Translations under genes and position numbers: made by a program | The notes under the pieces: generated by a model | Seen by the model: only the letters and a program-made list of their open reading frames with translations | Database searches by the model: none | Told to the model about the DNA's origin: nothing | Shown: piece after piece, positions 12,779-48,612 of the stretch | How the letters are laid out: each line of letters opens with the position of its first letter | How positions within the stretch are numbered: the first letter of the stretch is position 1 | Source: an uncultured Chloroflexia bacterium | GTDB taxonomy: Bacteria; Chloroflexota; Limnocylindria; Limnocylindrales; CSP1-4 | NCBI GenBank assembly: GCA_963712745.1 | Contig: CAVQJC010000005.1 | Coordinates: 64,001 to 128,000 of the forward strand | Direction: 5' to 3' | DNA length: 64,000 nucleotides

Positions 12779-12901
12779 CGCACGTCCCCCCATGCACACG
12801 GGCCGGGTTCGCCAGTGGCTCGGCGCGGTCCTCAGCGGCCATGATCGACGGGCCGCGCGTCCTCGCCTCCCGCTAGGTCCGATTATCCCGTGGCAGCCAA
12901 G
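12779..12901 (-). promoter_or_regulatory. Conserved cassette leader, copy 1 (promoter-like box plus structured 5' UTR)
   Basis: - strand CTTGGC..CACGGGATAAT..GCGGGAGGC..GCGGCC-loop-GGCCGC..GAGCCACTGGCGAACCCGGCCCG..GGGGGACGTGCG-ATG; recurs at about 18630, 24765, 34035, 37472 and 48494. Confidence 0.65.
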
Positions 12902-12965
12902 CCCGATGTCTGGAAGGGGCGGCTAATCGGGCAGCTATGCCGCCATCATCTGGCGTCGACCGGAT

Positions 12966-13176
12966 CACGCTCGCGAACCGCACAATAATCGACGCCTTCG
13001 CCGCTCGGGGCGCCACGCTCACAACCCCCGCAGCCTTCGCCGCTCGAGCCTGAAAGGCTCCCAAAGCATGTGCGCTACCGCTGCGCTACACCCCGACGTG
13101 GTTCGTGCGTGATTAAGGGTACACAGCGCGCCTCGATAGCGACGCCGATGGGCCTACAGCACTCGAACCGCGCGAT
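12966..13176 (-). repeat. tRNA-Pro-derived att-like repeat R1
   Basis: CACGCTCGCGAACCGCAC..GCCTTCGCCGCTC x2..GCTCCCAAAGCATGTGCGCTACCGCTGCGCTACACCCCG (13057-13095, tRNA 5' half)..GGGTACACAG..CCTACAGCACTCGAACCGC. Confidence 0.93.
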
Positions 13177-13312
13177 ATGCCGAACGGGTCAGTCTCGCGC
13201 CATGGGCCTCGATCCGGAGCATGCCAAGGTCGTATCCATGGGCCCCAGGTCGGCGCTGTGCGACTCGAGGCGACGCTGCCGCCAGCCGGACGCTCGTCGT
13301 TCCTCCGCCAGG

Positions 13313-14500
13313 CTACTCGCGACCCGACTGCCGTGCGAGGTCGCGCTTGAACTCATCGATCTCGGGGACCGAGATGACCGACTCGCTGAGCCAATCGGGC
13401 AATCCACCCACCGCAGCGAGGTCGACGTTCGAGCCACCCATGCGCTGGACGTACGCTGGATCGGTCACGATGAACTCCCAGGGATGGACCTCCGCCATAC
13501 GGGTCACGATCTGCTCCGCCGTGATGTTCACGACGGTGTAGTCCTGGGCTAGCGTGAACGGGCCGCGGTAGCCGGTGCGGAGACCATCGAGAATCGGCTG
13601 CGGCGTCCCCGGAGCGATCATCGCGTGATAGCCCATGGCCATGCCCGGCTTGGTCGCCTCGAAGACCTTCGCGGCGGCCTGCGGTGCGGTGTGCATCGTC
13701 CAGGCGACGGTCCTCGCGATGAGCTCGGGCCAGCCCATCTTCTCCATGTACATCTCCGGCGGATTGAAGATCTCATGGATGAGGAGATCGACGCCCTTGG
13801 CATTCTCGACGGTGAAGGTCGATGGTTCGCAATCGCCGGCGTACACCAGCGACAGCCCCGCGTAGTCCAGGCGGTAGCCGACCGCACCGAAGATGGAATG
13901 TGGCACCGGGAACGCGCGGATGGCGACGCCGTCCTCTTCGTAGATGAGGGTCGCCTCATCCGCCGCGAAACGATGCGGCGTGATCTCGTACACGCGCGGA
14001 TCCAGCCCGGCCTTGGCGCGATCATGCCAGGTCGCCAGACGCTTGATGGCGTCCACGACAGCCTCGGTGGACTCACCCTCGCCGCTGCCGTCGGGTCCGT
14101 GGATGTGCATCGGCTCGAGCCGCCCGTTCGTCTGGCCGAAGTCGTAGTAGACGGGCAGGTCGGCGATGTGATCGAGGTGGAAGTGGGTGATGAAGAACCG
14201 TGTCGCCTTCCAATACGGCAGTCGCAGCGTGTTGAAGGCCATGTTCGTGCCCGGGCCGGCATCGAAGATGAAGCTCTGTCCGTTGCCGCACTCCACGAGC
14301 CAGCCGGCGCAGCCCTGGCCCCGCCGTGCCGGATAGCCGGTGCCCAGGGCGGTGACGCGGACCTCCGCCCTCGCCAACTCCTCGGACTCGGGCGTATAGC
14401 GGTCCGGATAGGTACGTCGCTCAGCAGACTCGTCCTTCACCACGACCGGATGCGTCGTCAGCGGCACGCTGTGGTACGGCTCGGGTAGTCGCTCAGCCAT
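13313..14500 (-). CDS. MBL-fold metallo-hydrolase (RNase Z/arylsulfatase-like)
   Basis: LGTGYP, FDAGPG, ITHFHLDHIAD, PVPHSI, YAGDCEP, LIHE; AGGGAGG RBS before ATG 14500. Confidence 0.88.
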   Translation of the reverse strand: MAERLPEPYHSVPLTTHPVVVKDESAERRTYPDRYTPESEELARAEVRVTALGTGYPARRGQGCAGWLVECGNGQSFIFDAGPGTNMAFNTLRLPYWKATRFFITHFHLDHIADLPVYYDFGQTNGRLEPMHIHGPDGSGEGESTEAVVDAIKRLATWHDRAKAGLDPRVYEITPHRFAADEATLIYEEDGVAIRAFPVPHSIFGAVGYRLDYAGLSLVYAGDCEPSTFTVENAKGVDLLIHEIFNPPEMYMEKMGWPELIARTVAWTMHTAPQAAAKVFEATKPGMAMGYHAMIAPGTPQPILDGLRTGYRGPFTLAQDYTVVNITAEQIVTRMAEVHPWEFIVTDPAYVQRMGGSNVDLAAVGGLPDWLSESVISVPEIDEFKRDLARQSGRE

Positions 14501-14664
14501 CTTCGTGCCTCCCTTGGGCTGTGGTTGAACCTGCTCGACATCGACGGTACCGGGTTTGGCCAGGGTCGACGCGGCAGAGGTTCCCCGGCAGCGTGCAACC
14601 GATGCAGGCAATCGCTACGGTAAGGCCCACCGGCCTCACGTCGCAGCCATACAGAGGTACATGT

Positions 14665-17001
14665 ATGCCAGAGCACGATCCAGTCGTGGATGGATCTACG
14701 CTTCCGTTTCCCAAGCCCAAGTCTGGCAGCGTGGCCGGCCGCACGATGCAAGAGTCCATCTACGACCCGGCGCCCCCACCACAGCGGCTGCCGGCTGATG
14801 CGCCGAACATCCTGATCATCCTGATCGACGATGCCGGGCCAGCGCTGCCGGAAGCGCTGGGCGGTGTCGTGCACACCCCGACGCTGGAGCGAGTCCTCTC
14901 GGAGGGGATCGGGTTCAACCGCTTCCACACGACAGCCATGTGCTCGCCCACCAGGGCCTCGTTGTTGACGGGCCGCAACCACCACCGGGTCGGCAGCGGC
15001 GTGATGACCGAGTTCGCCAACGACTGGGATGGCTACTCGGGCGTCATCCCCCGCAGTAGCGCCCTCCAGGCCGAGGTGCTGCGACAGTACGGCTACGCCA
15101 CCGCCGCGTTCGGCAAGTGGCACAACACCCCTGGGATCGAGACGTCGGCGGCCGGGCCGTTCGACAATTGGCCGGCTCGCATCGGGTTCGAGTACTTCTA
15201 TGGGTTCCTCTCGGGTGAAGCCTCACAGTACGAACCGAACCTCGTCCGCAATACGACCCCGGTCCTGCCGCCGAAGACGCCGGAGGAGGGATATCACCTG
15301 AGCGAGGACCTCGCCGAAGACGCGGTCCGCTGGCTCCAGACGCACAAGGCGGTGCAGCCCGACAAGCCCTTCTACCTGTACTGGGCGAGTGGAGCCGTCC
15401 ATGGCCCCCACCACGTTCACAAGCAGTGGGCTGACAAGTACCGTGGCATGTTCGACGACGGCTGGGACGCCTATCGTGAGCAAGCGTTCGAAGGCGCCAA
15501 GGCGAAGGGCTGGATCCCGGAGACCGCCGAGTTGACGCCCCGGCATCCGACGATGCCGGCGTGGGACGATCTCCCAGAGGACCAGAAGCCGTTCCAGCGC
15601 CGCCTGATGGAAGTGTTCGCCGGCTTCGGCGAGCACGCCGACGTACAGGCGGGCAAGGTCATCGATGAGATCGAACGCCTCGGCTACGGGGATAACACCC
15701 TGGTCGTCTACATCTGGGGTGACAACGGATCATCGGGCGAGGGCCAGCAAGGAACCATCAGCGAGTTGATGGCGGTGAACGGTATCCCCTCCACGGTCGA
15801 GCAGCACATCGAGGCCCTCGACACGCTCGGCGGGCTCGATGTGCTTGGCTCACCGCTCGTCGACAACATGTACCACGCTGGGTGGGCGTGGGCGGGCAGC
15901 GCCCCCTACCAGGGCATGAAGCTGCTCGGATCGCACTTCGGTGGAACCCGGAACCCGATGGCCATCCGATGGCCCGCGAGGATCACACCCGACGCGAGAC
16001 CGCGATCGCAGTTCCACCACTGCAACGACCTCGTGCCCACTATCTACGAGCTGCTTGGCATCACGCCGCCGCAGACCGTGAATGGAGCCCCCCAGGACCA
16101 GATCGATGGGGTGAGCCTGGCCTACACCTTCGATGACCCTGACGCCGAAGGGCGCCTTCGCACGCAGTACTTCGACATCATGGGTAGCCGGGCGATCTAT
16201 CACGACGGCTGGATGGCCTCCGCCATCGGGCCACGGCTGCCCTGGGTCCCAGGTCTCGACCCGAAGATGTTCGAGTGGACACCCGACAAGGACGTCTGGG
16301 AGCTCTACAACCTCGAGGAGGACTGGTCGCAGGCCCATGACCTCGCCGGGGCGATGCCCGAGAAGCTGGCGCAGATGAAGGAGGTCTTCCTCATCGAAGC
16401 GGCCAGGAACAAGGCCCTGCCGATCGGCGGCGGGCTATGGATCCCCTTCCATCCTGAGTTCCGTGCCGCATCGCCGCAGACCGAATGGACCTTCGCAGGC
16501 GACCTCGTTCGCATCCCGGAGCCCGTCGCGCCGGGGCTGGGCAACAGGCCCAACGTCGTCACCATCCTCGCGGACGTGCCCAGCGACGCCACCGGTGTGC
16601 TCTACAAGCTTGGTGCTGGCTCTTCTGGCGTCACGCTGTTCGTCGAGGACGGCCACCTGGTCTACGAGTACAACCTGTTCATCATCCAGCGAACCCAGAT
16701 CCGTTCCGCCACCAAGCTTCCGGTCGGCAAGGTGGAGATCCGAGTGACGACCCTGCCGGTCGAACCGCGCCCCTCGGGTCCCCTGCAGGTGATGCTCGAG
16801 GTCAACGGCGACGCCGTGGGCGAAGGCACCGTCCCGGTCAGCATCCGTACGAGCTTCACGGCCAACGACTGCCTGGACATCGGGCAGGCGCTCGGCTCTC
16901 CAGTCTCGCTCGACTACCGTGACCGGGCACCGTTCAAGTTCAACGGCACGATCGAGCAGGTCCAGGTGAGGTACCTACCACCGGCGCAGCCGTCAGCGTA
17001 G
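14665..17001 (+). CDS. Arylsulfatase (formylglycine-dependent)
   Basis: PNILIILIDDAG, CSPTRASLLTGRNHH, FGKWHN, IWGDNG. Confidence 0.93.
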   Translation: MPEHDPVVDGSTLPFPKPKSGSVAGRTMQESIYDPAPPPQRLPADAPNILIILIDDAGPALPEALGGVVHTPTLERVLSEGIGFNRFHTTAMCSPTRASLLTGRNHHRVGSGVMTEFANDWDGYSGVIPRSSALQAEVLRQYGYATAAFGKWHNTPGIETSAAGPFDNWPARIGFEYFYGFLSGEASQYEPNLVRNTTPVLPPKTPEEGYHLSEDLAEDAVRWLQTHKAVQPDKPFYLYWASGAVHGPHHVHKQWADKYRGMFDDGWDAYREQAFEGAKAKGWIPETAELTPRHPTMPAWDDLPEDQKPFQRRLMEVFAGFGEHADVQAGKVIDEIERLGYGDNTLVVYIWGDNGSSGEGQQGTISELMAVNGIPSTVEQHIEALDTLGGLDVLGSPLVDNMYHAGWAWAGSAPYQGMKLLGSHFGGTRNPMAIRWPARITPDARPRSQFHHCNDLVPTIYELLGITPPQTVNGAPQDQIDGVSLAYTFDDPDAEGRLRTQYFDIMGSRAIYHDGWMASAIGPRLPWVPGLDPKMFEWTPDKDVWELYNLEEDWSQAHDLAGAMPEKLAQMKEVFLIEAARNKALPIGGGLWIPFHPEFRAASPQTEWTFAGDLVRIPEPVAPGLGNRPNVVTILADVPSDATGVLYKLGAGSSGVTLFVEDGHLVYEYNLFIIQRTQIRSATKLPVGKVEIRVTTLPVEPRPSGPLQVMLEVNGDAVGEGTVPVSIRTSFTANDCLDIGQALGSPVSLDYRDRAPFKFNGTIEQVQVRYLPPAQPSA

Positions 17002-17429: not shown

Positions 17430-18629
17430 CTACTCGGGAGGTTCAGGCGGAGCACCTTCGAAGATGACACCTTCGAGATCGGTCATGCCGTTGGGTGCGT
17501 GCGTCCAATCGACCATGTACGTCAAGCCCTCGTAGGCGCCCGTGCCTTCGAGGACGGCGAAGCTGTGTCCTGAGCCGTCCATCGCACGCGTGCCGTTGCG
17601 CGGCCCGACCCATGAGCCGTCTGGGCCCTCGAGTTCATAGGTGCCCCAGGTCGGTGACCCGATCCCGTACTGGCAGTCGCAGCTCCAGACCGTGGTCGCC
17701 CGGCCCGTCACCCGCGGGTCACTGGCGGTGTCGCGGCACGACATGGTCAGCCCGTCGATGGCCCAGATGCCGTCATGGAAGGTGACCCGGGGCGGAGCGC
17801 TCCAGTCCGGCGTGCAGGGACTGATCGACCCGGTCACCCAGGCACCAGCGTCGGGCGCCGGTGACATCGCGCCGTCGTCCCACCCTTGGATCGCCTCCCA
17901 GGCGACGCGCTGGAGGTACGCGGCCTCCTCCTCGCTCACACCCTCGGGCCGGTAGGTCAGGCCCTCGGGACTGTGCCCGTAGACCGTGGCGTAGATGACC
18001 GCCGCCGCGAGGTACAGGCCGTGGACGCTTGGGTGGCTCATGTCGGGACCGAGCATGTCGAGCTCTGGTCGCTCGATGAGCGAATCGATCATCGCCATCG
18101 CGACGGGGGCGATGTCGGCGTCCAGCTCGTCCTCGATCTGACGGTGCGCAGCCTCGATGCCCGCATGGCCCATCCAGTCCGCGAGGATGAAAGGCCAGGT
18201 CATGTAGTAGACCGGCCGTGCACCGCCGTCACGTACCGCTTGATCGAGAGTGCGGGCGCTCTCGAGGAACGTCTCGACCGCCGTCTCAGGGTCGTAGTTC
18301 TCCGGGATGTCGCCCTGGAGCACGACAACGTCAGGTCCCCTCTCTCGAACCCGCTCGGCCGAGACTCTACTCACGAAGGACTTCAGTGGCGCACCACCCG
18401 CCGTGATCGAGTCCACTTCGATCGTCCGAGGTGGGTCCTCCGACGCGGCCAGCCCTGCGACGTGGGACCACACCCCATCGTCCCAGAACGAGAAGCTGTT
18501 CCCGACGAAGAGCAGGCTGTCGGGGCTGGCTGGCAGTTCCTCGCTCTCCGTGGCGGCCGCCGTACCTCCCAGTCCGCTGAGCAGCGCCAGGATGATCGCC
18601 CCGACCAGAGTCAGCCGCTGCGTGCCCAT
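17430..18629 (-). CDS. Secreted SGNH/GDSL-like hydrolase with extra C-terminal domain
   Basis: Signal peptide, LLFVGNSFS, DVVVLQG, DMSHPSVHGLYLAAAVIY. Confidence 0.75.
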   Translation of the reverse strand: MGTQRLTLVGAIILALLSGLGGTAAATESEELPASPDSLLFVGNSFSFWDDGVWSHVAGLAASEDPPRTIEVDSITAGGAPLKSFVSRVSAERVRERGPDVVVLQGDIPENYDPETAVETFLESARTLDQAVRDGGARPVYYMTWPFILADWMGHAGIEAAHRQIEDELDADIAPVAMAMIDSLIERPELDMLGPDMSHPSVHGLYLAAAVIYATVYGHSPEGLTYRPEGVSEEEAAYLQRVAWEAIQGWDDGAMSPAPDAGAWVTGSISPCTPDWSAPPRVTFHDGIWAIDGLTMSCRDTASDPRVTGRATTVWSCDCQYGIGSPTWGTYELEGPDGSWVGPRNGTRAMDGSGHSFAVLEGTGAYEGLTYMVDWTHAPNGMTDLEGVIFEGAPPEPPE

Positions 18630-18750
18630 AGCATTCCCCCATCTGGTTCGCGGGGCGGGTTCGCCAGTGGCTCGACACGGTCCAGGCGGCCAGTTCTGGG
18701 GCTGTGCCTCATCGCCTCCCGTTACCACTGATTATCGCGCGGCCGCCAAG
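18630..18750 (-). promoter_or_regulatory. Conserved cassette leader, copy 2
   Basis: + strand GGGTTCGCCAGTGGCTC..GCGGCC..GCCTCCCG..GATTATC..GGCCGCCAAG. Confidence 0.6.
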
Positions 18751-23202: not shown

Positions 23203-24072
23203 CTACGTGGGGAGATCTGAGCGTCGCAGCCGCTCGACGGTGACTGGTGACGGCGCGGCTTCGGGTCGCAGCTCCGTCGGCAGTTCCTGTCCGGTCAGCC
23301 AGGCCTCGACCATGCGGACGTGCAGGTCGGGTGCCGTGAGCTGCCAGCAATGCCCCAGACCGGGCGCGTACCACGCCTCGGCGTCCTGCATGACGGCCGC
23401 CAGTGCCGCATTGGAGGCTCGGACGCCGAGTCCGTCGAGGTCATCGGTCTCCGCCTCCCCGGCGACGAGGAGCGTCGGGCACGAGGCGCCGGTCGCGGCA
23501 TAGGACCGGAAGGCGTCGGCGACTGTGCCCAGGTACGCCCGGCGCGACGCGGCGCGCACATCCTCCTCGCCCAGGAGTTCACCGAGCCTCCTGACCACTG
23601 GCCGGGTGTGAAGGAACGGCGTCACCATGACGGTGGCCAGGAGCGTCAGGGCACGCGCGCCCCTCGGGACGATGACTGGGACGCCATCGGTGATCGCCCG
23701 CTGGACGCGGTCGGGGTGGCGGTCCAGCAGGGCATGGATGACCACGCCACCCGAGCAGAGACCGACCACGCTCGCGCGACCCGAAGGGACGTGCGACCCG
23801 ATGAGCGCGGCCACGATGTCCGCCGTCTTCCGCAGCGACGCTGCGGGCAGGTGATTGCTGCGCCCGAACCCAGGCAGATCCGGGGCCAGGCAGTAGAAGT
23901 CGGTGAGGCCCGTCATGTGCGTTCGCCAGAACCGGGCACTCTGGCCGGCCCCGTGGAGGAAGACGACAGCTGGGGACTTCGGGTCGCCAGACGCCTCCAC
24001 GTACATGCCATGGGGCCCGGGCTCCGCCTTGCGGACCGTGGCGGAGTGGTCGAGCACCTCGGGCGCGTTCAT
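23203..24072 (-). CDS. Alpha/beta fold hydrolase
   Basis: FLHGAGQS, APDLPGFGRS, VGLCSGG, PGLGHCW. Confidence 0.85.
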   Translation of the reverse strand: MNAPEVLDHSATVRKAEPGPHGMYVEASGDPKSPAVVFLHGAGQSARFWRTHMTGLTDFYCLAPDLPGFGRSNHLPAASLRKTADIVAALIGSHVPSGRASVVGLCSGGVVIHALLDRHPDRVQRAITDGVPVIVPRGARALTLLATVMVTPFLHTRPVVRRLGELLGEEDVRAASRRAYLGTVADAFRSYAATGASCPTLLVAGEAETDDLDGLGVRASNAALAAVMQDAEAWYAPGLGHCWQLTAPDLHVRMVEAWLTGQELPTELRPEAAPSPVTVERLRRSDLPT

Positions 24073-24764
24073 GCCACGGACGCCTTGACGGGCATCTGTC
24101 GCTCTGGGGCGCTGGCCACCGCGGTGGATGCCGGTTTGACAGCCCGGACGAGCTGGGACTTGGAGGGCACCGGCAGGACCGTGACGCTGATGTCGGTGAA
24201 GCCTGCCTCCTCGACAAGCCTGGCCGCGTCGACGTCGCTCCAGAACCAGACGCCCCAAGCGTCGCGCGTACCCGACTTGTCGGTCCGCCCCAAGAGGGCC
24301 TTCGTGTTGTCGCCCATGGTGAAGACGGCGCGTCCACCGGGTCGCAGGACGCGGTGCATCTCAGCCAGCGCCCCTCCCGGGTCGGACGTGAACTTCATGG
24401 CGTCGAGGGAGGTGACGACGCCGAAGCGGGAGTCCTCCCAGGGCAGGTCCGCAGCATCGCCGAGGACGATCTCGGCCGTCCCCGCGGCGATGCGTTCGGC
24501 CAGACGCTTTCGGGCCATCTCGATCTGGAGCTCCGAGGCATCGATGCCGGCCACGTAGCGGACGTGAGCGGCGTGCTCGGCGAAGAGCACCGCCGATCCG
24601 CAGCCGACGTCGAGCAACTCGTCGTCGGCCTGGAGGTCGAGCTCGGCGGCCATGGCGCGATGGTACTTGCCCTTCATCGACGCCAGCAGCCGGGCACCGA
24701 TCCAGCCGAGCGGACCGTGGGGCACTCCCAGCAACGCGTAGTCGAACGATCTGCGCAGACCCAT
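24069..24764 (-). CDS. Class I SAM-dependent methyltransferase
   Basis: LLDVGCGSA, GDAADLPW, EMHRVLRPGG. Confidence 0.9.
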   Translation of the reverse strand: MGLRRSFDYALLGVPHGPLGWIGARLLASMKGKYHRAMAAELDLQADDELLDVGCGSAVLFAEHAAHVRYVAGIDASELQIEMARKRLAERIAAGTAEIVLGDAADLPWEDSRFGVVTSLDAMKFTSDPGGALAEMHRVLRPGGRAVFTMGDNTKALLGRTDKSGTRDAWGVWFWSDVDAARLVEEAGFTDISVTVLPVPSKSQLVRAVKPASTAVASAPERQMPVKASVA

Positions 24765-24883
24765 CGCACGTCCCCCTTGCGCGGGCCGGGTTCGCCAGTG
24801 GCTCAGCGCGGTCCTCAGCGGCCATGGTCACGGACCGTGCGTCGGAGCCTCCCGCTACCCACCATTCTCGCGCGGCCGCCAAG
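24765..24883 (-). promoter_or_regulatory. Conserved cassette leader, copy 3
   Basis: Same motif as 12779-12901. Confidence 0.65.
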
Positions 24884-27575: not shown

Positions 27576-27746
27576 CGGCTCCCCCTGCTCGAAGCGGGTC
27601 GCGAGCGCCCGCACCAGCCGGTGGCGTTCACCGTCCCCGCTGACCTTGATTCTCTCGCGGCCGACAAGCCGGGTGCGCCTGGCTCAGCTGGGCGGGACCG
27701 TTGGGGTGCCGGGCAGTCCGCCGAAGCGACGAAGCGGCCGGCATTT

Positions 27747-30788: not shown

Positions 30789-31012
30789 ATGATCTTGTTG
30801 GCGTTGCTGGCGGTGCTCGGGATCCCGATCTGGCTGGTCGTCGGGGTCCTCATCGCCGTTTGGCAGATCCGGCGCGCGGTGAAGCAACAGCCAGGCGTGT
30901 TCGAGATCCTGGTGCGAGCGGAGGACACGGACAAGTGGCCGCGAGAGCTGAGCTATGGCCGCGTCGTTCGTGATGTCCTCGTAGACAAGCAGGAGGTCGC
31001 TGACGCGGACCA
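30789..31012 (+). pseudogene. Truncated small membrane protein fragment
   Basis: MILLALLAVLGIPIWLVVG..; the frame runs into a partial cassette leader at about 31013. Confidence 0.4.
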
Positions 31013-31142
31013 GCGGCCATGGTCCGCGAGCCGCGCGTCGTCGCCCCCCGCTACCCTCGATTATCCCGTGGCCGCCAAGCCGGGAGTCAGAGTCAGGCGG
31101 CTCGCTCGAGCAGCCAGGCCACCAGCGTCTGGACCCTGCCGC

Positions 31143-31859: not shown

Positions 31860-33477
31860 GGGCCACCTCCCTTCGAATCGGTCGGGCGATCCGTTGAGCG
31901 TCGCTCAGGTGACGACCACCTCTCGGTGATTCCGTTGCCTCGCTCGCATCCCCCGCCGCAGATGCGGCCGGCTTGGTGGCGTGCACCAGCCTGGACTTGT
32001 ACGCGACCGGCAGGACCGAGAGCGCGACGTCGACGAAGCCGGCCTCCTCCACGAGGCGCTGCGCATCGGCATCGCTCCAGTTCCAGACGCCCCAGGCGTT
32101 GCGCGCGCCTGATTCGTCCGTCGCGCCCCAGCCGGGCTTGACGTGCTCGCCCAACGTGAAGACCGCCCGTCCGCCGGGCCGAAGGACGCGACACATCTCC
32201 CGCAGCGTGCCCTCGGGGTCGCCGATGTGCTTGAGCACCTCGAGCGAGGTGACGACGCTGAAGCGGCCGTCCTCCCAGGGCAGGTCCGCCGCGTCACCGA
32301 GGACGATCTCGGCCGTGCCTGCCGCGATGCGCTTCGACAAACGCTTGCGCGCCATCCTGACCTGGATCTCCGAGATGTCGAGGCCGGCCACGTGGCGGAC
32401 GTGCGCCGCATGCTCCGCGAGGAGCCTGCCCGACCCGCAGCCGACGTCGAGGAGCTCATCGTCGGGCCGGAGGCGAAGCTCAGCCGCCATGGCCCGTGTG
32501 TATTGCTGCATGGCCGACCCCATCACCCGGGCGCCGACCAACCCGACGGCCCCGCGCGGCTCCCCGAACAAGCGGCTCCAGAACTCCCTGCGATAGCCGA
32601 TCGATCGTCCGCCTCGTCGGGTCTTCGCTCGCATCCGCTCCACCCTCGCAGGCGAGGGTGCGGCTTCGGGTCGCAGCTCCGTCGGCAATTCCTGTCCGGT
32701 CAGCCAGGCCTCGACCATGCGGACGTGCAGGTCGGGTGCCGTGAGCTGCCAGCAATGCCCCAGACCGGGCGCGTACCACGCCTCGGCGTCCTGCATGACG
32801 GCCGCCAGTGCCGCATTGGAGGCTCGGACGCCGAGTCCGTCGAGGTCATCGGTCTCCGCCTCCCCGGCGACGAGGAGCGTCGGGCACGACGCGCCGGTCG
32901 CGGCATAGGACCGGAAGGCGTCGGCGACTGTGCCCAGGTACGCCCGGCGCGACGCGGCGCGCACATCCTCCTCGCCCAGGAGTTCACCGAGCCTCCTGAC
33001 CACTGGCCGGGTGTGAAGGAACGGCGTCACCATGACGGTGGCCAGGAGCGTCAGGGCACGCGCGCCCCTCGGGACGATGACTGGGACGCCATCGGTGATC
33101 GCCCGCTGGACGCGGTCGGGGTGGCGGTCCAGCAGGGCATGGATGACCACGCCACCCGAGCAGAGACCGACCACGCTCGCGCGACCCGAAGGGACGTGCG
33201 ACCCGATGAGCGCGGCCACGATGTCCGCCGTCTTCCGCAGCGACGCTGCGGGCAGGTGATTGCTGCGCCCGAACCCAGGCAGATCCGGGGCCAGGCAGTA
33301 GAAGTCGGTGAGGCCCGTCATGTGCGTTCGCCAGAACCGGGCACTCTGGCCGGCCCCGTGGAGGAAGACGACAGCTGGGGACTTCGGGTCGCCAGACGCC
33401 TCCACGTACATGCCATGGGGCCCGGGCTCCGCCTTGCGGACCGTGGCGGAGTGGTCGATCACTTCGGGCGCGCTCAT
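31717..33477 (-). CDS. Alpha/beta hydrolase-methyltransferase fusion (C-terminal read-through overlaps next gene)
   Basis: N-terminal half near-identical to 23203-24072; C-terminal half LLDVGCGSG..GDAADLPW..RVLRPGG. Confidence 0.8.
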   Translation of the reverse strand: MSAPEVIDHSATVRKAEPGPHGMYVEASGDPKSPAVVFLHGAGQSARFWRTHMTGLTDFYCLAPDLPGFGRSNHLPAASLRKTADIVAALIGSHVPSGRASVVGLCSGGVVIHALLDRHPDRVQRAITDGVPVIVPRGARALTLLATVMVTPFLHTRPVVRRLGELLGEEDVRAASRRAYLGTVADAFRSYAATGASCPTLLVAGEAETDDLDGLGVRASNAALAAVMQDAEAWYAPGLGHCWQLTAPDLHVRMVEAWLTGQELPTELRPEAAPSPARVERMRAKTRRGGRSIGYRREFWSRLFGEPRGAVGLVGARVMGSAMQQYTRAMAAELRLRPDDELLDVGCGSGRLLAEHAAHVRHVAGLDISEIQVRMARKRLSKRIAAGTAEIVLGDAADLPWEDGRFSVVTSLEVLKHIGDPEGTLREMCRVLRPGGRAVFTLGEHVKPGWGATDESGARNAWGVWNWSDADAQRLVEEAGFVDVALSVLPVAYKSRLVHATKPAASAAGDASEATESPRGGRHLSDAQRIARPIRREVAHGQGAGDRLGDRRRGRDGGDGAASQRHLGAHGLVGYRSRLECQCATR

Positions 33478-34034
33478 GCCACGGACGCCTTGACGGGATC
33501 TGCTCGCTCTGGGGCGCTGGCCACCGCGGTGGATGCCGGTTTGACAGCCCGGATCAGCTGGGACTTGGAGGGCACCGGCAAGACCGAGATGCTGACGTCA
33601 GTGAAGCCCGCCTCCTCGACGAGCCTGGCCGCGTCGGCATCGCTCCAGCACCAGATGCCCAGGCGCTCTGCGTACCCGAGGGGGCCGATCCGAACCACGC
33701 CTGACTGTCGTCGCTCATGGTGATGATCGCCCGGCCACCGGGTGGCACGACGCGGTGCATCTCCGCCAGGACCATGGATGGGTCGGACACGAACTTCATG
33801 GCGTCGAGGGAGGTGATGACGCTGAAGCGACCGTCCTCCCACGGCAGCGACGAAGAGCCTGCCCGAGCCACAGCCGACGTCGAGCAACTCGTCGTCAGCC
33901 TGGAGGTCGAGCTTGGCAGCCATGGAGCGGTAGTACTTGCCCTTCATCGACACCATCATCCGGGCGCCGACCCGTCCGCTCAGGCCGCTCGGCTTTCCGA
34001 AGAATGGGGTCCAGGACCTGCGGCGCAGACCCAT
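33474..34034 (-). pseudogene. Class I methyltransferase with internal deletion and frameshifts
   Basis: DVGCGSGRLFV jumps directly to LPWEDGRFSVITSLDAMKF in another frame; the segment present in paralogs is missing. Confidence 0.8.
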
Positions 34035-34158
34035 CGCACGTCCCCCCATGCGCACGGGCCGGGTTCGCCAGTGGCTCCGCGCGGCCCTCAGCGGCCATGG
34101 TCGACAGGCCGCGCGTCATCGCCTCCCGCTACTGACGATTATCCCGTGGCCGCCAAGC
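34035..34158 (-). promoter_or_regulatory. Conserved cassette leader, copy 4
   Basis: Same motif; near-identical to 37472-37595. Confidence 0.65.
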
Positions 34159-34224
34159 CCGGAGTCAGAGTCAGGCGGCTCGCTCGGACAGCCAGGCCAT
34201 CAGCGTCTGGAATCTGCGGCGGCT

Positions 34225-34433
34225 CACGCTCGCGAACCGCACGATGATCGAGGCCTTCGCCGCTCCGGCCGCCAGGCTCAGGGTCGCGGAGCCTTCGCCG
34301 CTCGAGCCCGAAAGGCTCCCAAAGCATGTGCGCTACCGCTGCGCTGCACCCCGACGAGTTCGTGCGTGCATTGGGTGCACAGCGCGGCTCGAGAGTGATG
34401 CCGAGGGGCCTACAGCGCTCGAACCGCACGATA
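34225..34433 (-). repeat. tRNA-Pro-derived att-like repeat R11
   Basis: Full copy. Confidence 0.92.
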
Positions 34434-34511
34434 GCCCTTGGGCGTTCGAGGTGGTGCACCGCGACGGGGCTCACCCTCGCCGATGCAGGTTTCCCGTGGC
34501 GACGAGCGGAC

Positions 34512-36008: not shown

Positions 36009-36042
36009 CTCGTCACCTCCTACAAGGACGCGAACATGGGGT

Positions 36043-36783
36043 TCACCGTTTTGGCCGAGCAAGGTGGCCGACCCCCACCTCGCGCGCGGCAGCGACGGCG
36101 GCCGCGACACCGTCGGTCCAGGGTTCCCCGTGGCCGGGCAGCAACCAGTGCGCCTCGAGCTCTTCGATGCTCGCGAGCGAGGCCAGCGCTTCATCGGGGT
36201 CGGCAGCGAAGGGACAGATCTGCGGACCACGGCGCTCGGTGATGACCGCGTCCGTCGCCAGCGCGTCGCCCACGAAGAGGGCGTCGTGTTCCGGCGCATG
36301 GAAGGTGACGCTGCCATGCGTGTGTCCGGGTGTGTGGATGACGCGCAGCGCGCCCGGTACGTCGAGCGTCGTGCCCGGGTCGAAGGTGCCGACCTCCATC
36401 AGCGCCGTGGTACGCATCGCGCCGTGACGCATGAGCCACAGCAGATAGTGCAGCAGCGATCGCAGCCGGCGTTCACCCATGCCGGCGCTCGGGTTGCCGA
36501 CCTCGCCCCGGGCCAGGGCAGCATCCAGCTCGTGGATGCTGACGGGCACGTCGCGCTCGGCACGCAATCGTTCGGCGAACCCGATGTGGTCGTCGTGGCC
36601 GTGGGTCAGCACGACGGCGCGAACATCCTCGATCGTGCGGCCCATGGCCGCGAGCTCACCTGGCAGTTCGCCGTAGTACGCGGGCACACCCGCGTCGATG
36701 ATGGTGACCTCGCCAGCTTCCTCGAGGAGATAGCAGCTGACGATCGCTTCGCCGAGCCGATGCAGGGATGGGGCGAGTCGCAT
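36043..36783 (-). CDS. MBL-fold metallo-hydrolase
   Basis: IIDAG, LTHGHDDHIG, HTPGHTHGS, FVGDAL, LLPGHG. Confidence 0.9.
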   Translation of the reverse strand: MRLAPSLHRLGEAIVSCYLLEEAGEVTIIDAGVPAYYGELPGELAAMGRTIEDVRAVVLTHGHDDHIGFAERLRAERDVPVSIHELDAALARGEVGNPSAGMGERRLRSLLHYLLWLMRHGAMRTTALMEVGTFDPGTTLDVPGALRVIHTPGHTHGSVTFHAPEHDALFVGDALATDAVITERRGPQICPFAADPDEALASLASIEELEAHWLLPGHGEPWTDGVAAAVAAAREVGVGHLARPKR

Positions 36784-36793
36784 CGGATCGGCC

Positions 36794-37471
36794 TCACGCC
36801 ACGCTCTCAGCCGTCGTGGTTGTCGCCTCGGCCGCTGTTGCCGCCGACTTCACGCCTCGGGCCAGCAGGGCCTTGGAGAACACCGACATCACCGAGACGG
36901 TGACATCGCCGAAGCCGGCCGCCTCCACCAGCCGTTGCGCGGCGTCGTCGGTCCACTGCCACTGGCCGAAGCCGTCCACCACCGCCTCGGTCGACCCTTC
37001 CGGAGCGTACCCAGCCTCACCCATCGTGACCGCCATCCGACCACCCGGGCGCAGGACCCGGTGCATCTCCCGCAGCGTTGCCAGCGGGTCGGGCACGAAC
37101 TTGAGGGCATTGACCGACGTGACCGCGCTGAATCGGTCGTCCTCCCAGGGCAAGTTGTCGGCATCGCCCTTGACGATCTCCGCGGTGCCCGCGGCGATGC
37201 GCTCAGCCAGGCGCCTACGTGCTATCTCGAGCTGCAGCTCCGAGGCGTCGAGGCCGGCGACGAAGCGCACGTGCCCCGCGTGGTCGACGAACAGGGTGGC
37301 CGAGCCACAGCCGACGTCGAGCAGCTCATCGTCCGGCTGGAAGTCCAGCTCCGCAGCGATCTGGGTGTGGAACGGACGGCTGCTCCTCGGCATCAGCCGG
37401 ACGCCGAGCCGCCCAGGCATGCCGTGCGGCACCCCGAAGAACGACATCCACCAGCTTCGGCGCAGACCCAT
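36794..37471 (-). CDS. Class I SAM-dependent methyltransferase (close paralog of 12134-12778)
   Basis: MGLRRSWWMSFFGVPHG.., LLDVGCGSA. Confidence 0.9.
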   Translation of the reverse strand: MGLRRSWWMSFFGVPHGMPGRLGVRLMPRSSRPFHTQIAAELDFQPDDELLDVGCGSATLFVDHAGHVRFVAGLDASELQLEIARRRLAERIAAGTAEIVKGDADNLPWEDDRFSAVTSVNALKFVPDPLATLREMHRVLRPGGRMAVTMGEAGYAPEGSTEAVVDGFGQWQWTDDAAQRLVEAAGFGDVTVSVMSVFSKALLARGVKSAATAAEATTTTAESVA

Positions 37472-37595
37472 CGCACGTCCCCCCATGCGCACGGGCCGGG
37501 TTCGCCAGTGGCTCCGCGCGGCCCTCAGCGGCCATGGTCGACAGGCCGCGCGTCATCGCCTCCCGCTACTGACGATTATCCCGTGGCCGCCAAGC
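37472..37595 (-). promoter_or_regulatory. Conserved cassette leader, copy 5
   Basis: Same motif. Confidence 0.65.
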
Positions 37596-37661
37596 CCGGA
37601 GTCAGAGTCAGGCGGCTCGCTCGGACAGCCAGGCCATCAGCGTCTGGAATCTGCGGCGGCT

Positions 37662-37759
37662 CACGCTCGCGAACCGCACGATGATCGAGGCCTTCGCCGC
37701 TCCGGCCGCCAGGCTCAGGGCCGCGGAGCCTTCGCCGCTCGAGCCTGAAAGGCTCCCAA
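37662..37759 (-). repeat. att-like repeat R12, arm only, ending in the anticodon loop
   Basis: ..GAGCCTGAAAGGCTCCCAA followed by unrelated sequence. Confidence 0.85.
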
Positions 37760-38071
37760 GCGGACACCACTCGCGCGTCGCCGAGCGGCGCGACCTACCC
37801 CACCTTCGTTCCACGTACGATGCGCATGTCCTCCATCTTCGCGAGCCGGTTGAGCGCCCGAAGGAAGCGGCTGGATGCGCTCGCGGCGCCGTGACCGAGA
37901 CGTCCGGTCGCCTTGGCACAGGGGACGAGCGTGCCCCGCTCTGGGCGATCGTCTGCTGTGCTGATCGAAGTGGAGCGGCTCTCCCTACGTGCTCGAGCCG
38001 TCATACGCGACGTGCGCTGACGTGGCACCCAGCGATGACACGACCAACACACGTCGAGCGAGAACGGGTCG

Positions 38072-39910: not shown

Positions 39911-40327
39911 TCAGGCAGCGAGTCGGAAGGGGTCCTCCACGCGGATGCCGTCGTAGTCGGTGGCATCGTCGAGATCTTCGGACAACACCACTGAACATCC
40001 AAGGGCACGAGCGGCCTCGAGGATCGCCGCGTCCCAGTAGGACACGCCGAAGCGGCTCCGTGTCGCCAGCGCCGCTCGCATCACATCGACACTCGTGACC
40101 TGCACCGAGAACCGACACCAGGCCTCGACCAGTCCGGCTGCCTCGTCGTGGGTGATCGCGTCTTCTCGAGTTGCCCGGGTCGCTTGGACGTAGAACTCCT
40201 GCAGGACCTGCACCGAGAGACCGATCTCACCACCGTCGATGATCTCGTTCGCGATCATCGCTTTGCCCTCCTCCGCCGGGTCGCGTGAGATGGCATACAA
40301 GAGGATGTTCGTGTCAACGAAGCGCAC
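39911..40327 (-). CDS. PIN-domain (VapC) toxin
   Basis: FVDTNILLYA, SVQVLQEFY, SYWDAAILEAA, VLSEDL. Confidence 0.9.
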   Translation of the reverse strand: MRFVDTNILLYAISRDPAEEGKAMIANEIIDGGEIGLSVQVLQEFYVQATRATREDAITHDEAAGLVEAWCRFSVQVTSVDVMRAALATRSRFGVSYWDAAILEAARALGCSVVLSEDLDDATDYDGIRVEDPFRLAA

Positions 40328-40553
40328 GCTCGTGAACCTCATCGCGTGTCAGGCGGTCCATCGCCCGGAAGCGCTTGATCTGACCTTGGATGCGACGCTG
40401 CTGCGCTTCCAACCGCGAGAACTCGGCGTCATCGTAGGAAAGCGAGCGCAGGTAGGTCGCGACCATGCCACTGACTGATCGGCCCTCCTCCGCGGCTCGG
40501 ATGCGAGCGGCGCGATAGACGTCGTCAGGTACAGAGACCGTGATGTTCTTCAC
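40314..40553 (-). CDS. RHH-type antitoxin (VapB-like)
   Basis: GTG start KNITVSVPDDVYRAARIRAAEEGRSVSGMV; overlaps the toxin start. Confidence 0.85.
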   Translation of the reverse strand: MKNITVSVPDDVYRAARIRAAEEGRSVSGMVATYLRSLSYDDAEFSRLEAQQRRIQGQIKRFRAMDRLTRDEVHERALR

Positions 40554-40592
40554 CGTGTCACAGTAACGCATTCTCACAGTATCTGTGAGCTG

Positions 40593-40766
40593 ATGGCAGT
40601 GAGCCCAAGGTCCTGGATGTGGGAGCTTCGCCACACAGTGACGGCCTGTGACGCGGCATTCCTGGCACTCGCGGAGGCGCTCGATGCACCGCTGGTCACG
40701 TGCGATGCCCGACTCGCTCGCGCGCCCGGTCACGCAGCTTCGGTAGAGGTGTTCCCTCGCGGTTGA
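40593..40766 (+). pseudogene. C-terminal remnant of a second VapC/PIN toxin
   Basis: WELRHTVTACDAAFLALAEALDAPLVTCDARLARAPGH. Confidence 0.7.
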
Positions 40767-44878: not shown

Positions 44879-45072
44879 GGCATGTTCACGGGCGATGGCT
44901 TCCGCGGAGCGACCAGCTGCGCAAACCGCAGGTGGCAGGAGTGTCGCCTGCCCCTGGGCAAGAAGCGTGGAGACCGAGACCTTGGCCATGGCGTCACCCA
45001 CCCGCCGGCGCGGACGCAGACCATGGAGATCGGTCACCGAAAGCGCATGGTGCGGGCCGCCGTCGGTAGTTA

Positions 45073-45354: not shown

Positions 45355-45560
45355 CGATCCTCCTCAAGAGCCAGCAGGACGCGTGACTCACTCGAGCAGC
45401 GTACTACCCGGGTATCCGTGCTCGGGCCGACGGGGGTGCGAGTCCCCCTGGATGAGGGTCGAGCGACTGGCAGGCCCGTTCGCCCCGGCAACGACGGACC
45501 AGCGTGAAGCCGGTGCTGGCCATCGCTAGGGTATGGGACTGTCTGCCTCGAGTCGCAGCC

Positions 45561-46070
45561 ATGCCTGAGGAGCACCTGTGCCCAGCACAAGAGCCAGTCG
45601 TGGACCGATCCGTCCTGCCGTTTCCCAGATCCCGGTCAGGCAGCGTGGCCGGCCGCACGATGCAGGAGTCCATCTACGACCCGACTCCGCCGCCACAGCG
45701 GCTGCCGGCCGATGCGCCGAACATCCTGATCATCCTGATCGATGATGCCGGGCCTGCGTTGCCGGCAGCCTTGGGAGGTGCTGTCCACACCCCGACGTTG
45801 GAACCGATCCTCTCCGAGGGCATCGGCTACAACCGCTTCCACACGACGGCGATGTGCTCGCCCACCAGGGCCTCACTGCTGACGGGCCGCAATCACCATC
45901 GGGTCGGCAGTGGCGTGATTACCGAGTTTGCCAATGGCTGGGATGGGTACTTGGGCGTCATCCCCCGCAGCAGCGCCCTCCAGGCCGAGGTACTGCGACA
46001 GTACGGCTATGCCACCGCCGCGTTCGGCAAGTGGCACAACACCCCCGGGCAGGAGACGTCGGCGGCCGGG
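45561..46070 (+). pseudogene. 5' fragment of an arylsulfatase (paralog of 14665-17001) cut at a repeat
   Basis: CSPTRASLLTGRNHH..FGKWHNTPGQETSAAG, then joins the repeat arm. Confidence 0.85.
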
Positions 46071-46190
46071 TTCACCGCGCCACGCTCCGAAGGCCGGGGC
46101 CATCGCCGCAAACCCCTCGTGGGCTCCCGAAGCATGAGCGCTACCGCTGCGCTACACCCCGACGGAGTTCGTTCGTGCGAACCGTACAAT
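46071..46190 (-). repeat. att-like repeat R17 (collapsed)
   Basis: CCGCAAACCCCTCGTGGGCTCCCGAAGCATGAGCGCTACCGCTGCGCTACACCCCG..GAACCGTACAAT. Confidence 0.82.
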
Positions 46191-46267
46191 GGTGGTTCGC
46201 ATGACGAACCTGGACTAGCGCACACCGCTGACTGGCGGCACCCGAAGAGGGGTCGGGTTGAGGTGGC

Positions 46268-46618
46268 ATGCACGAGCTTCCCGTCACCACGAGCATCCTC
46301 GAGATCGTCCTTCGCCATGCCGCGGTGAACGAGGTGGAGCGGGTTTCCACCATCGACTTGAGCATCGGGGCCCTGAGCGATCTGGAGCCCGAGTGGCTCC
46401 AGTCCTACTTCGACCACATCAGCAGGGGGACCCCAGCTCAAGGGGCCCGACTTCGGGTTCGCCGTTCCCCCCTCACCTTCCGGTGCGGGTTCTGCACCGC
46501 GGAGTTCGATGCGGCCCGGGAGAGCCTGGACCGGATCGTCTGCCCCGACTGCGGCTCCGGAGACGCGTCAGTCGTCTCGGGGACCGGCTACACGGTGGAA
46601 GCCATGGAGGCCGAGTGA
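46268..46618 (+). CDS. hypA: Hydrogenase maturation nickel metallochaperone HypA
   Basis: MHELPVT, IGALSDL, CGFC and CPDC. Confidence 0.92.
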   Translation: MHELPVTTSILEIVLRHAAVNEVERVSTIDLSIGALSDLEPEWLQSYFDHISRGTPAQGARLRVRRSPLTFRCGFCTAEFDAARESLDRIVCPDCGSGDASVVSGTGYTVEAMEAE

Positions 46619-47283
46619 TGAGCGATCTCACCCTCATAGACATCAAAGAGGAGATCCTCTCGGAGAACCGAGAGCTGGCGAAGCAGCTCCGGTCCGAGCT
46701 CGAGTCCCGGAACGTCTTCCTCGTCAACTTCATGTCTTCGCCGGGATCAGGAAAGACGAGCCTCATCCTCCGGACGCTTTCGAACTTGAGGGCGGCCTAC
46801 AGGATGGCCGTCATCGAAGGTGACGTGGATTCGGCTGTGGACGCAGAACGGATGACGAAGGCGGGATTCCCGGCGGTCCAGCTCAAGACAGGCGGCTCCT
46901 GTCACCTCACCGCTGCCATGGTGGAAAAGAGCCTCCAGGCGCTGCCCCTGGAATCACTGGACCTGCTGTTCCTGGAGAACATCGGGAACCTCATCTGCCC
47001 CGTCGACTCGGACACAGGCGCCAACCTGAACGTGGCCCTCACCAGCGTCCCCGAGGGGGACGACAAACCCCTGAAGTACCCGAAGATCTTCCAGACCTCC
47101 GACGCCTTCCTGGTGAACAAGACGGACGTGGCGGACCATTTCGATTTCGATTTGGCCGAGTTCCGGCGGCGGGTCAGGACGCTGAACCGGGAAGCGCCGG
47201 TCTTCGAGGTCTCCTGCAAGACCGGTCAGGGGATCGAGGAGTGGTGCGCGTGGCTACGGGGGAGGATCGAGGGTTCTGGCTGA
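46618..47283 (+). CDS. hypB: Hydrogenase nickel incorporation GTPase HypB
   Basis: MSSPGSGKT, VIEGD, TGGSCHL, ENIGNLICP, PEGDDKPLKYP, NKTD. Confidence 0.93.
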   Translation: MSDLTLIDIKEEILSENRELAKQLRSELESRNVFLVNFMSSPGSGKTSLILRTLSNLRAAYRMAVIEGDVDSAVDAERMTKAGFPAVQLKTGGSCHLTAAMVEKSLQALPLESLDLLFLENIGNLICPVDSDTGANLNVALTSVPEGDDKPLKYPKIFQTSDAFLVNKTDVADHFDFDLAEFRRRVRTLNREAPVFEVSCKTGQGIEEWCAWLRGRIEGSG

Positions 47284-47365
47284 GGCCATGACGAGGGCGG
47301 TGGCTGGCGGGCCTCACCCAGAGGCCGCCGCCAGAAGCCCCTGTCATTTGTCGGGACCGCCTACC

Positions 47366-48493
47366 TCAGGTCCTCATGCCCAGGGCCTTCTTCCCCACGA
47401 ACTTCATCGTCCCCAACACACCGTATCGCTCCAGCATGATCTTCTTGTAGAGGTCAGCCGTGCTCTTCGGGGGCGTCGTCGTCGCCTCCTTCTCCACCAG
47501 GTGGATGGCTTCCTCGGGGCAGGTCGACACGCAGAGGCCGCACCCGATACAGAAGAGCCGGTCCACCGAGGCGACGCCGTCGGCGTAGCTGATGGCCCCC
47601 ATGGCGCAGCGGTCCCCACAAGTCTCACACGCGATACAGAGCTCCTCGTCCACCCCGGCGAAGTAGTTGGTGTCGAAGTACTCGGCGGGCCGGGGGAGCT
47701 TCTTGGCCGTGGAGAGGACCCCGCAGCAGCAGCCGCAGCAGCAACAGATGAAGTCGGGGTCCTGGGTGTTCATGGGCTGAAGGACCATGCCGACCTCGTC
47801 GGCTCGGTCCAGGAGCCCGAGCATCTCTTCCGATGACAGCTCCCTGGCATTTCCCGACTCGATGGCGGCCTTGGCGAAGTCCTTCAGGAGCAGGCAGGTC
47901 TCCCGGATCTCCGTCTGGCGGCACGGTTCATCCTGAAGGTCCATGCCCTGGCGGCAGACGCAGTTGATCACGCCGAACGGTCCCTCCGAGCGCATCACCA
48001 GAGAACGGGCGTTGTCGTAGGTGCCGATCCGGCGCTCAGGCGTCACCTCCTCGCTGATGGGAATCGTCCGCATCTGCGAGGTCTTCCTGGTGTGGAAGGC
48101 CTTGCCGAATCCCTCATCCATGTACTGGAGGAAGTCGGAGTGCAGCTCCTTGGTGAGCCGGTTGACCTGGAACTCGAAGATGCCGAGGGCCAGCATGGCC
48201 TTCGAGTAGTGGGGCTTCCCGTCGATCTTGGTGCCCGCGATCGCACCCTTGGCAGCAAGACGTTGCAGGGCGTCCCGCAGCTGGGCGAACTCCACCCCCG
48301 TCTTCTTCGCCCGGGCGTGGATCTTATCGATGGACTCCGGGAGGGCGCCCAGGTGCAGAGCCATCTCGGCCTCTTCAGGGGTGAACAGGTGCTCCAATAG
48401 CCTGAGCTCGACACCCGAGTCCGTGGCGGGAAACCCGACCGGCATCTGGTCGAGGTGCTGTTGGAGCCGACGGTAAACGTTCTCGGTGGCCAT
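47366..48493 (-). CDS. 4Fe-4S dicluster domain protein
   Basis: PVGFPATDSGVE, NCVCRQ, ICCCCGCCCG, CIACETCGDRC, CIGCGLCVSTCP. Confidence 0.88.
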   Translation of the reverse strand: MATENVYRRLQQHLDQMPVGFPATDSGVELRLLEHLFTPEEAEMALHLGALPESIDKIHARAKKTGVEFAQLRDALQRLAAKGAIAGTKIDGKPHYSKAMLALGIFEFQVNRLTKELHSDFLQYMDEGFGKAFHTRKTSQMRTIPISEEVTPERRIGTYDNARSLVMRSEGPFGVINCVCRQGMDLQDEPCRQTEIRETCLLLKDFAKAAIESGNARELSSEEMLGLLDRADEVGMVLQPMNTQDPDFICCCCGCCCGVLSTAKKLPRPAEYFDTNYFAGVDEELCIACETCGDRCAMGAISYADGVASVDRLFCIGCGLCVSTCPEEAIHLVEKEATTTPPKSTADLYKKIMLERYGVLGTMKFVGKKALGMRT

Positions 48494-48612
48494 TGTGGGC
48501 CTCCCGTTGGCGCGGGCCGGGTTCGCCAGTGGCTCGGCGCGGCCCAGGCGGCCATGGTGTGGGCCGCGTCTCACAGCCTCCCGCTGCTCACGATTCTCTC
48601 GCGGCTGCCAAG
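48494..48612 (-). promoter_or_regulatory. Conserved cassette leader, copy 6
   Basis: - strand GAGAAT..GCGGGAGGC..GCGGCC-CACACCAT-GGCCGC..GGGCCG CGCCGAGCCACTGGCG AACC CGGCCC..GGGAGG..ATG. Confidence 0.65.

Follow-up and report, generated by a model that had tools for sequence, protein, structure and literature searches.

The 64,000-nucleotide (nt) stretch considered here, called the window below, corresponds to positions 64,001 to 128,000 of contig CAVQJC010000005.1 (C5 in the coordinates that follow) of an uncultured Chloroflexia bacterium (assembly GCA_963712745.1), and contains on its minus strand six copies of a conserved leader, each closely followed by an ATG. The six elements are riboswitch-type aptamers in the 5' untranslated region (5'-UTR) and belong to the cyclic diguanosine monophosphate II (c-di-GMP-II) clan (CL00127), a known clan and not a new class of RNA. 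All six carry the bases A-C-G at three positions that distinguish the families of the clan. With a probability that we set at roughly 60%, they are leaders exerting translational control in response to c-di-GMP or a related dinucleotide, which have spread in part by module duplication.

Six leaders of the c-di-GMP-II clan

The 18-nt core GAGCCACTGGCGAACCCG matches exactly at six sites, all on the minus strand (12804, 18656, 24787, 34060, 37497 and 48518), and a seventh match, with three mismatches, lies on the plus strand; seven matches at up to three mismatches were reached in none of 100 shuffles. An alignment of 400 nt around each of the six core copies returned, as invariant columns, the blocks CTTGGC.GCC.CG.GA.AAT, GCGGGAGGC, GGCCGC and GAGCCACTGGCGAACCCG.CCC, followed by a purine-rich stretch and the ATG. 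These are the blocks listed in an earlier note on this DNA, made from the letters alone, and the repeated minus-strand motif with an invariant core stands as it was described there.

When the window was compared with Rfam 15 at the curated thresholds, seven matches were obtained, namely the six elements and the tRNA-Pro(UGG) gene (9679-9753). Five copies match RF03169 (c-di-GMP-II-GAG) with 52.5-58.8 bits, above the cut-off of 40, while the best model for the copy at 18644-18728 is RF03170 (c-di-GMP-II-GCG), the RF03169 cut-off being passed as well. The six alignments are full length and show the helices P1, P2 and P3 with their conserved junctions. With the canonical model, RF01786, the six copies score 35.4-45.4 bits, below its cut-off of 53.5, a value reached by none of the 37 matches of that model in the whole genome. 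Because the six copies pass the curated thresholds of RF03169 or RF03170, the motif is a catalogued riboswitch-type RNA, and the idea of a cis-regulatory leader RNA, already put forward in the earlier note, is supported for all six. The copies are as follows, R1 being a covariance model built from an alignment of 24 copies of the same genome:

12792..12879, minus strand: aptamer copy 1, c-di-GMP-II clan, A-C-G type; RF03169 55.5 bits against a gathering score of 40; R1 85.8 bits
18644..18728, minus strand: aptamer copy 2; RF03170 57.1 bits against a gathering score of 47.9; RF03169 48.7 bits
24775..24861, minus strand: aptamer copy 3; RF03169 52.5 bits
34049..34135, minus strand: aptamer copy 4; RF03169 57.0 bits
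37486..37572, minus strand: aptamer copy 5, identical in aptamer sequence to copy 4; RF03169 57.0 bits; six-way alignment
48507..48590, minus strand: aptamer copy 6, outside the array of tRNA-half repeats described below; RF03169 58.8 bits
30983..31057, minus strand: truncated aptamer remnant, 5' two thirds, without the CACTGGCGAACCCG core; R1 27.5 bits, E 6.5e-4; alignment

The remnant at 30983-31057, for which Rfam reported nothing at E up to 5, lies behind an intact upstream box (31060-31079), which agrees with the partial copy noted earlier near 31.0 kb. The very degenerate copy noted near 27.6 kb is so only in part: the box is there (27649-27668), and of the aptamer just about 8 nt of the start are left. 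Each of the six full copies ends 10-14 nt before an ATG, as a 5'-UTR element should, with a Shine-Dalgarno stretch between the end of the aptamer and the start codon.

The fold was recovered in part independently of Rfam, as RNAalifold, applied to a MAFFT alignment of the 24 own-genome copies, found P1 and P3 without such guidance. Searching the window and 65 loci from the same genome and 29 relatives with R1 yielded 90 matches, 78 of them distinct. In these 78 aptamers 87.8% of the cells pair and 12 of the 17 pairs, including all eight of P3, have changed on both sides, counts that must be read in the light of an alignment fitted to the structure of the model and of sequences related to each other. 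The covariation score is 0.263, as compared with 0.157 for shuffled alignments (none of 500 shuffles reached 0.263) and 0.016-0.119 for slid controls, so that the check on homologues proposed earlier does find covariation. The pseudoknot between CGCC of the P3 loop and GGCG of the 3' strand is paired in 92%; no covariation of it was found among the aptamers compared within the genus, and between the canonical and the variant consensus an A-U pair is swapped for G-C. The arrangement is that of the clan: P1, P2 and P3, and a pseudoknot that joins the P3 loop to the 3' junction. The hairpin GCGGCC/GGCCGC drawn in the earlier note has no place in the fold of the family: in the Rfam alignments GGCCGC belongs to the P3 loop and contributes to the pseudoknot.

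The A-C-G variant and the genes behind it

Ten matches were fetched from other Chloroflexota, and the seven that best fit the canonical model provided its consensus line. After the pseudoknot strand the consensus reads GUG-CAACCG in the canonical family, GCG-AGACCG in GAG and GCG-AGCCCG in GCG. The families are thus distinguished at the two bases that come second and third after the pseudoknot strand and at a G three bases on, the canonical type being A-A-G and the two Rfam variants G-A-G and G-C-G, and it is to these three positions that the Rfam names GAG and GCG presumably refer. All six window copies read GCG-AACCCG, that is, A-C-G. The same type accounts for 45 of the 78 distinct aptamers (34 from this genome and 11 from relatives), the others being G-C-G (15), A-A-G (seven), G-A-G (four) and truncated or otherwise different (seven). 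This genome has an A-A-G copy at G000:C7:68231-68315, and a G-A-G copy of a relative lies at L042:1501-1585. The A-C-G copies are members of the clan, yet judged by their bases at these positions they fall into none of the three Rfam families; they represent an unnamed variant of the presumed pocket, greatly amplified in this lineage.

A loose search pattern for the A-C-G junction matched in 109 of 401 Chloroflexota genomes, but since a reversed control gave similar results outside the own genome (own genome, 34 as compared with 4 in the control), these loose matches tell nothing, and only those identical to the 18-mer can be relied on. Exact matches to the 18-mer in the 401 genomes were found, among the matches listed, twice in G410 and once each in G143, G457, G276 and G301.

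The own assembly (4.2 Mb, 84.6% complete) has RF03169 matches in 45 places, often clustered, of which 37 exceed the cut-off. Matches also occur in 33 of 36 other genomes of the genus, numbering 1-38 per genome, and none was found in 24 small genomes (1.0-1.4 Mb) of another family of the same order. In a sample of the phylum, the tally of which includes the unpublished G190, matches at E up to 0.001 are present in 46 of 151 genomes; those outside this genus have 1-10 each. The public metagenomes that contain the DNA come from sediment, salt marsh and estuary.

For 39 of the 45 genome matches a co-oriented start codon could be placed within 21 nt downstream, and about 29 of the 45 encoded N-termini, as judged by eye, are signal-peptide-like. 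Among the regulated genes Pfam recognised a BD-FAE esterase, a periplasmic sugar-binding protein, a rhodanese, a BNR/sortilin protein of 1551 amino acids, a META domain protein, three SRPBCC proteins, methyltransferases, a GNAT and a dynamin-like GTPase, along with a weak cupin match below the Pfam cut-off; for 13 of 26 representative regulated proteins from outside the window there was no Pfam match at all. The genome also encodes eight GGDEF proteins and about four EAL proteins (five EAL-domain matches). A diverse and mostly exported set of putatively regulated proteins, together with enzymes of c-di-GMP metabolism, would fit a second-messenger riboswitch. As a separate observation, the gene of a GGDEF diguanylate cyclase (614 amino acids; 6455-8299, minus strand) lies about 1.4 kb beyond the tRNA-Pro gene, adjoining the riboswitch-rich array.

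The types differ in part in the genes that they precede. The G-C-G type stands before an orthologous membrane protein of about 97 amino acids (DUF5658) in 13 of 13 genomes examined, and this tie suggests that each type may have a distinct regulon. Examples of the G-C-G type are L016:1500-1587 (G000:C7:63327-63412), L057 and L059-L069, and in many relatives it is the sole match of the family. In three relatives (G036, G002 and G008; loci L042:1501-2282, L045 and L046) G-A-G aptamers head the methyltransferase family that is headed by A-C-G in the window, with 55% amino acid identity. That presumed pocket bases have changed before a conserved methyltransferase gene can be explained by tolerated variation or by a changed input. 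Behind several aptamers with signal-peptide starts downstream the reading frame breaks after 40-160 codons (G000:C4:294835-296304, C17:172729-173065, C10:43191, C10:175348, C20:287339 and C15:161380); these may be either pseudogenes or frameshift errors of metagenome assembly.

Proposed control and alternative readings

In the mechanism that we favour, transcription would start at about the first base of the aptamer. A messenger of the cyclic dinucleotide type, most likely c-di-GMP, would bind the junction and pseudoknot and lock P1, which would change the access to the Shine-Dalgarno sequence and the start codon. Control at the level of translation is proposed because a terminator would not fit and none turned up in the scanned stretches, 33900-37800 and 47300-48800, which cover three of the six copies. 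The direction of the switch is assumed to be 'on' by analogy with canonical class II examples; where PMC7583470 deals with the canonical c-di-GMP-II riboswitch, its ligand is given as c-di-GMP and the switches as translational 'on' switches, while c-di-GMP-II is mentioned in passing in PMC5737381 and appears as a listed family name in PMC9943018 and PMC11539752. The six leaders, as part of the genome-wide set of 45, would have spread partly by duplication of methyltransferase modules within a tRNA-Pro cassette array.

As to the start of transcription, each window aptamer lies 6-7 nt past a -10-like hexamer, GA(T/G)AAT, which forms part of a conserved upstream box:

12882..12901, minus strand: upstream box CTTGGCTGCCACGGGATAAT (-10-like GATAAT); C5:76882; invariant columns
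18731..18750, minus strand: upstream box; C5:82731
24864..24883, minus strand: upstream box; C5:88864
27649..27668, minus strand: upstream box without aptamer, followed by about 8 nt of aptamer start; C5:91649
31060..31079, minus strand: upstream box of the truncated copy; C5:95060
34138..34157, minus strand: upstream box; C5:98138
37575..37594, minus strand: upstream box; C5:101575
48593..48612, minus strand: upstream box; C5:112593

The full box, CTTG[GT]C.GCC.CG.GA.AAT, occurs eight times in the genome, always in the window: six times with an aptamer, once with the truncated one (31.0 kb) and once with none (27.6 kb). The other 39 aptamers of the genome lie behind different upstream sequences. 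GA[GTC]AAT ends 8-11 nt before a conserved CGGG in 26 of the 45 copies, and a TCATAC-like hexamer is found in eight others, so that a promoter at the GA(T/G)AAT box seems plausible from the sequence; the CTTGGC part of the box is just about 8 nt upstream of the hexamer.

Several results weigh against this mechanism. The reservation already attached to the pair counts is one of them. A sigma-70 scan gave no -35/-10 pair at a spacing of 16-18 nt. When P1 was forced or blocked in silico, in 30 of 39 copies (nine were skipped as landmark patterns failed), the accessibility of the Shine-Dalgarno sequence showed no clear change (0.55 in the mimic of the bound state and 0.51 in that of the apo state). 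As a candidate expression platform a helix was considered in which GCGCAUG, after P1, pairs with CAUGCGC at the start codon and encloses the Shine-Dalgarno sequence, an arrangement seen by eye in roughly half of the 39 copies; it is not claimed as the platform since it is no more stable than shuffles (-9.3 versus -8.7 kcal/mol). The public RNA runs are assembled contigs, which cannot show a transcription start. Finally, the window copies have A-C-G at the positions that are A-A-G in the canonical class. The three distinguishing positions are probably ligand contacts, corresponding to A69, A70 and G73 of the solved structure, and in view of the difference, binding of c-di-GMP is not to be assumed.

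Twenty-one public runs were listed, three of them RNA libraries that contain 5-8% of the sampled words; runs X18, X19, X20 and X1 yielded nothing but contigs. The depth of the aptamer bins, 145 and 85 in RNA run X19 and 246 and 65 in DNA run X1, shows neither a start nor expression; the bins are deep in RNA and DNA runs alike because many copies in the community share the core. The stretches 17735-18004 and 18183-18462 are matched perfectly by two X19 contigs, for which DNA carry-over is possible.

The difference in the pocket leads to a second reading, possible if on the whole unlikely, which keeps the fold and the family but lets the A-C-G subclass sense a ligand other than c-di-GMP, for example another cyclic or a linear dinucleotide. 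The genus would then run parallel riboswitch specificities, A-A-G, A-C-G, G-A-G and G-C-G. This would account for the prevalence of A-C-G in the window and among the 78 aptamers, and for what looks like a separation of regulons, with G-C-G tied to DUF5658 and A-C-G heading the expanded set; moreover, no ligand for the GAG or GCG variants was found reported in the literature searched, which did not include the paper describing the variants. However, the homologous methyltransferases found under G-A-G in three relatives and under A-C-G here fit tolerated variation equally well, and the distinguishing positions are no more than presumed ligand contacts. A bolder formulation, which we offer as speculative, would make A-C-G a third specificity variant of the c-di-GMP-II fold, as yet without a name, whose messenger is not c-di-GMP; amplified in this genus to dozens of copies per genome, it would control a regulon of exported proteins and would have been spread in part by an integrase-less tRNA-Pro array.

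A leader without a ligand, that is, a constitutive 'expression head' made up of promoter, stable 5' structure and strong ribosome-binding site and copied along with the cassettes, is improbable. Box and leader do travel together in the array, decayed copies are found at 27.6 and 31.0 kb, and the accessibility modelling gave no switch. However, the most conserved part of the element consists of unpaired junction and pseudoknot bases, the core being identical in the six copies and near-invariant in the 78, as expected of a binding pocket and not of a stabilising hairpin. In addition, the pairing of P3 is kept through compensatory changes, and in the 39 other copies the aptamer is retained although the sequences upstream are different. 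The 'cassette expression head' considered in the earlier note therefore holds in so far as the box is confined to this array and accompanies an aptamer in six of eight cases, and fails on the duplicated modules, the 39 other upstream contexts and the lack of a sigma-70 pair at the spacings scanned.

An undescribed class of cis-regulatory RNA, the reading preferred in the earlier note, which had been made without tools, can be dismissed. The copies do fit the Rfam models in a somewhat atypical way (52-59 bits, versus 69-77 bits for G-A-G copies in related genomes), but each of the six aligns over its full length and scores above the curated threshold of a known family, RF03169 or RF03170, with the same helices and pseudoknot; this is the outcome that the note itself had named as refuting it.

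Leaders controlled by c-di-GMP or a related dinucleotide are thus the reading that we retain. At the presumed binding pocket the genus provides a natural series of alleles (A-A-G, A-C-G, G-A-G and G-C-G), with up to 45 copies per genome and with gene associations that partly differ by aptamer type, so that ligand discovery and tests of specificity switching become directly approachable with a few synthetic RNAs. The distribution also suggests that a second messenger controls the secreted proteome of an uncultured Chloroflexota lineage of sediments, and shows that cassettes of a tRNA-Pro array can carry their own regulatory leader.

The cassette array and known systems

The array extends from 9679 to 46211 on the minus strand. 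Upstream of the intact tRNA-Pro(UGG) gene it has, at intervals of 1-4 kb, at least 16 copies of a repeated unit. The unit, of about 190-215 nt, consists of the upstream region of tRNA-Pro, the first 38 nt or so of the tRNA and a conserved tail that contains two GAGCGGCGAAGGC boxes. Such a tRNA-half unit precedes five of the six riboswitch copies at a distance of 62-76 nt, so that the closeness to a repeat arm noticed earlier holds for these five, while the copy at 48.5 kb has no arm. The unit nearest to copy 1 (13005-13095, minus strand) is matched as a tRNA below threshold (23.1 bits, E 1.5), with a 40-nt insertion and a closing acceptor-like CGCCCCGA, a match not seen with other units. Arrays of the tRNA-Pro-half unit were found in at least eight relatives. 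No tyrosine recombinase (PF00589) was matched on contig C5, nor was an integrase of this family found beside the arrays of five relatives checked.

The genes that follow the six leaders are:

12134..12778, minus strand: class I methyltransferase dependent on S-adenosylmethionine, ATG 13 nt after the aptamer; Pfam Methyltransf_11, E 2.2e-20
17430..18629, minus strand: protein with a signal-peptide-like start, MGTQRLTLVGAIILALLSGLGG; weak Pfam DUF4886 match, 23.9 bits, below the cut-off of 26.7
24069..24764, minus strand: methyltransferase paralogue; Pfam Methyltransf_11, E 3.1e-21; 62% amino acid identity to 12134-12778
33474..34034, minus strand: frameshifted methyltransferase paralogue; weak CMAS match; tblastn matches in two frames
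36794..37471, minus strand: methyltransferase paralogue; Pfam Methyltransf_11, E 4.5e-21; 85% amino acid identity to 12134-12778
47366..48493, minus strand: 4Fe-4S cluster protein; Pfam Fer4 families, 4Fe-4S motifs

The gene assignments made earlier were right for the four methyltransferases, three of them Methyltransf_11 proteins and the fourth the frameshifted paralogue at 33474-34034, and for the 4Fe-4S protein, in which the Fer4 families are found; 'SGNH hydrolase' is at most tentative for 17430-18629, as the only match there is to DUF4886 and below the cut-off. The methyltransferases share 85% identity between 12.8 and 37.5 kb and 60-62% with that at 24.8 kb, and alpha/beta-hydrolase genes downstream were duplicated together with them. 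By these similarities the four copies are paralogous modules duplicated as units and not independent captures, so that the window has three independent gene contexts rather than six. The description of the cargo as unrelated is to be limited accordingly: it fits the three contexts, and does not fit the four of six copies that lead paralogous modules.

Further evidence of cassette turnover is provided by a truncated sulfatase fragment (45504-46328, plus strand), which duplicates part of a full sulfatase cassette (14521-17001, plus strand) with 84% DNA identity over 300 nt. The array also holds, at 39911-40733 on the minus strand, a gene for a PIN-domain toxin and one for a ribbon-helix-helix antitoxin.

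In its many small, unrelated, same-strand cassettes parted by a conserved repeat, the array resembles an integron. Toxin-antitoxin pairs are common in large integron arrays, and the PIN/ribbon-helix-helix pair is a further likeness. The array differs from an integron in that the repeat holds the 5' half of tRNA-Pro and no attC hairpin, in that the contig has no tyrosine recombinase gene, and in that some cassettes are equipped with a promoter-like box and a riboswitch of their own; intI, attI and attC-bounded cassettes, by which integrons are defined, are not what is found here.

As regards the aptamers, the window copies have in common with RF03169 the helices P1, P2 and P3, the CGCC/GGCG pseudoknot, the blocks GGGAGGC and GAGCCA.UGGCG, and the position in the 5'-UTR before genes of exported proteins. 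They differ from it in that the consensus UGGCGAGACCG is replaced by UGGCGAACCCG, A-C-G instead of G-A-G, and in that the outer base pairs which the model has in P1 do not form, P1 having 5-6 base pairs. With RF03170 they share C at the middle distinguishing position, whereas the first is A in the six window copies and G in that family, which they consequently do not join; it is the best-scoring model for the copy at 18.6 kb only. The G-C-G type of the genus itself is also unlike the window copies, with GGGAAGC, a GAGC-AG block shorter by one base and its tie to the DUF5658 gene. From canonical RF01786 the window copies are set apart by C instead of A at the middle position and by one pseudoknot pair, G-C instead of A-U, whereas they agree with it in architecture, in clan and in the A at the first distinguishing position, in a genome that has both GGDEF and EAL enzymes.

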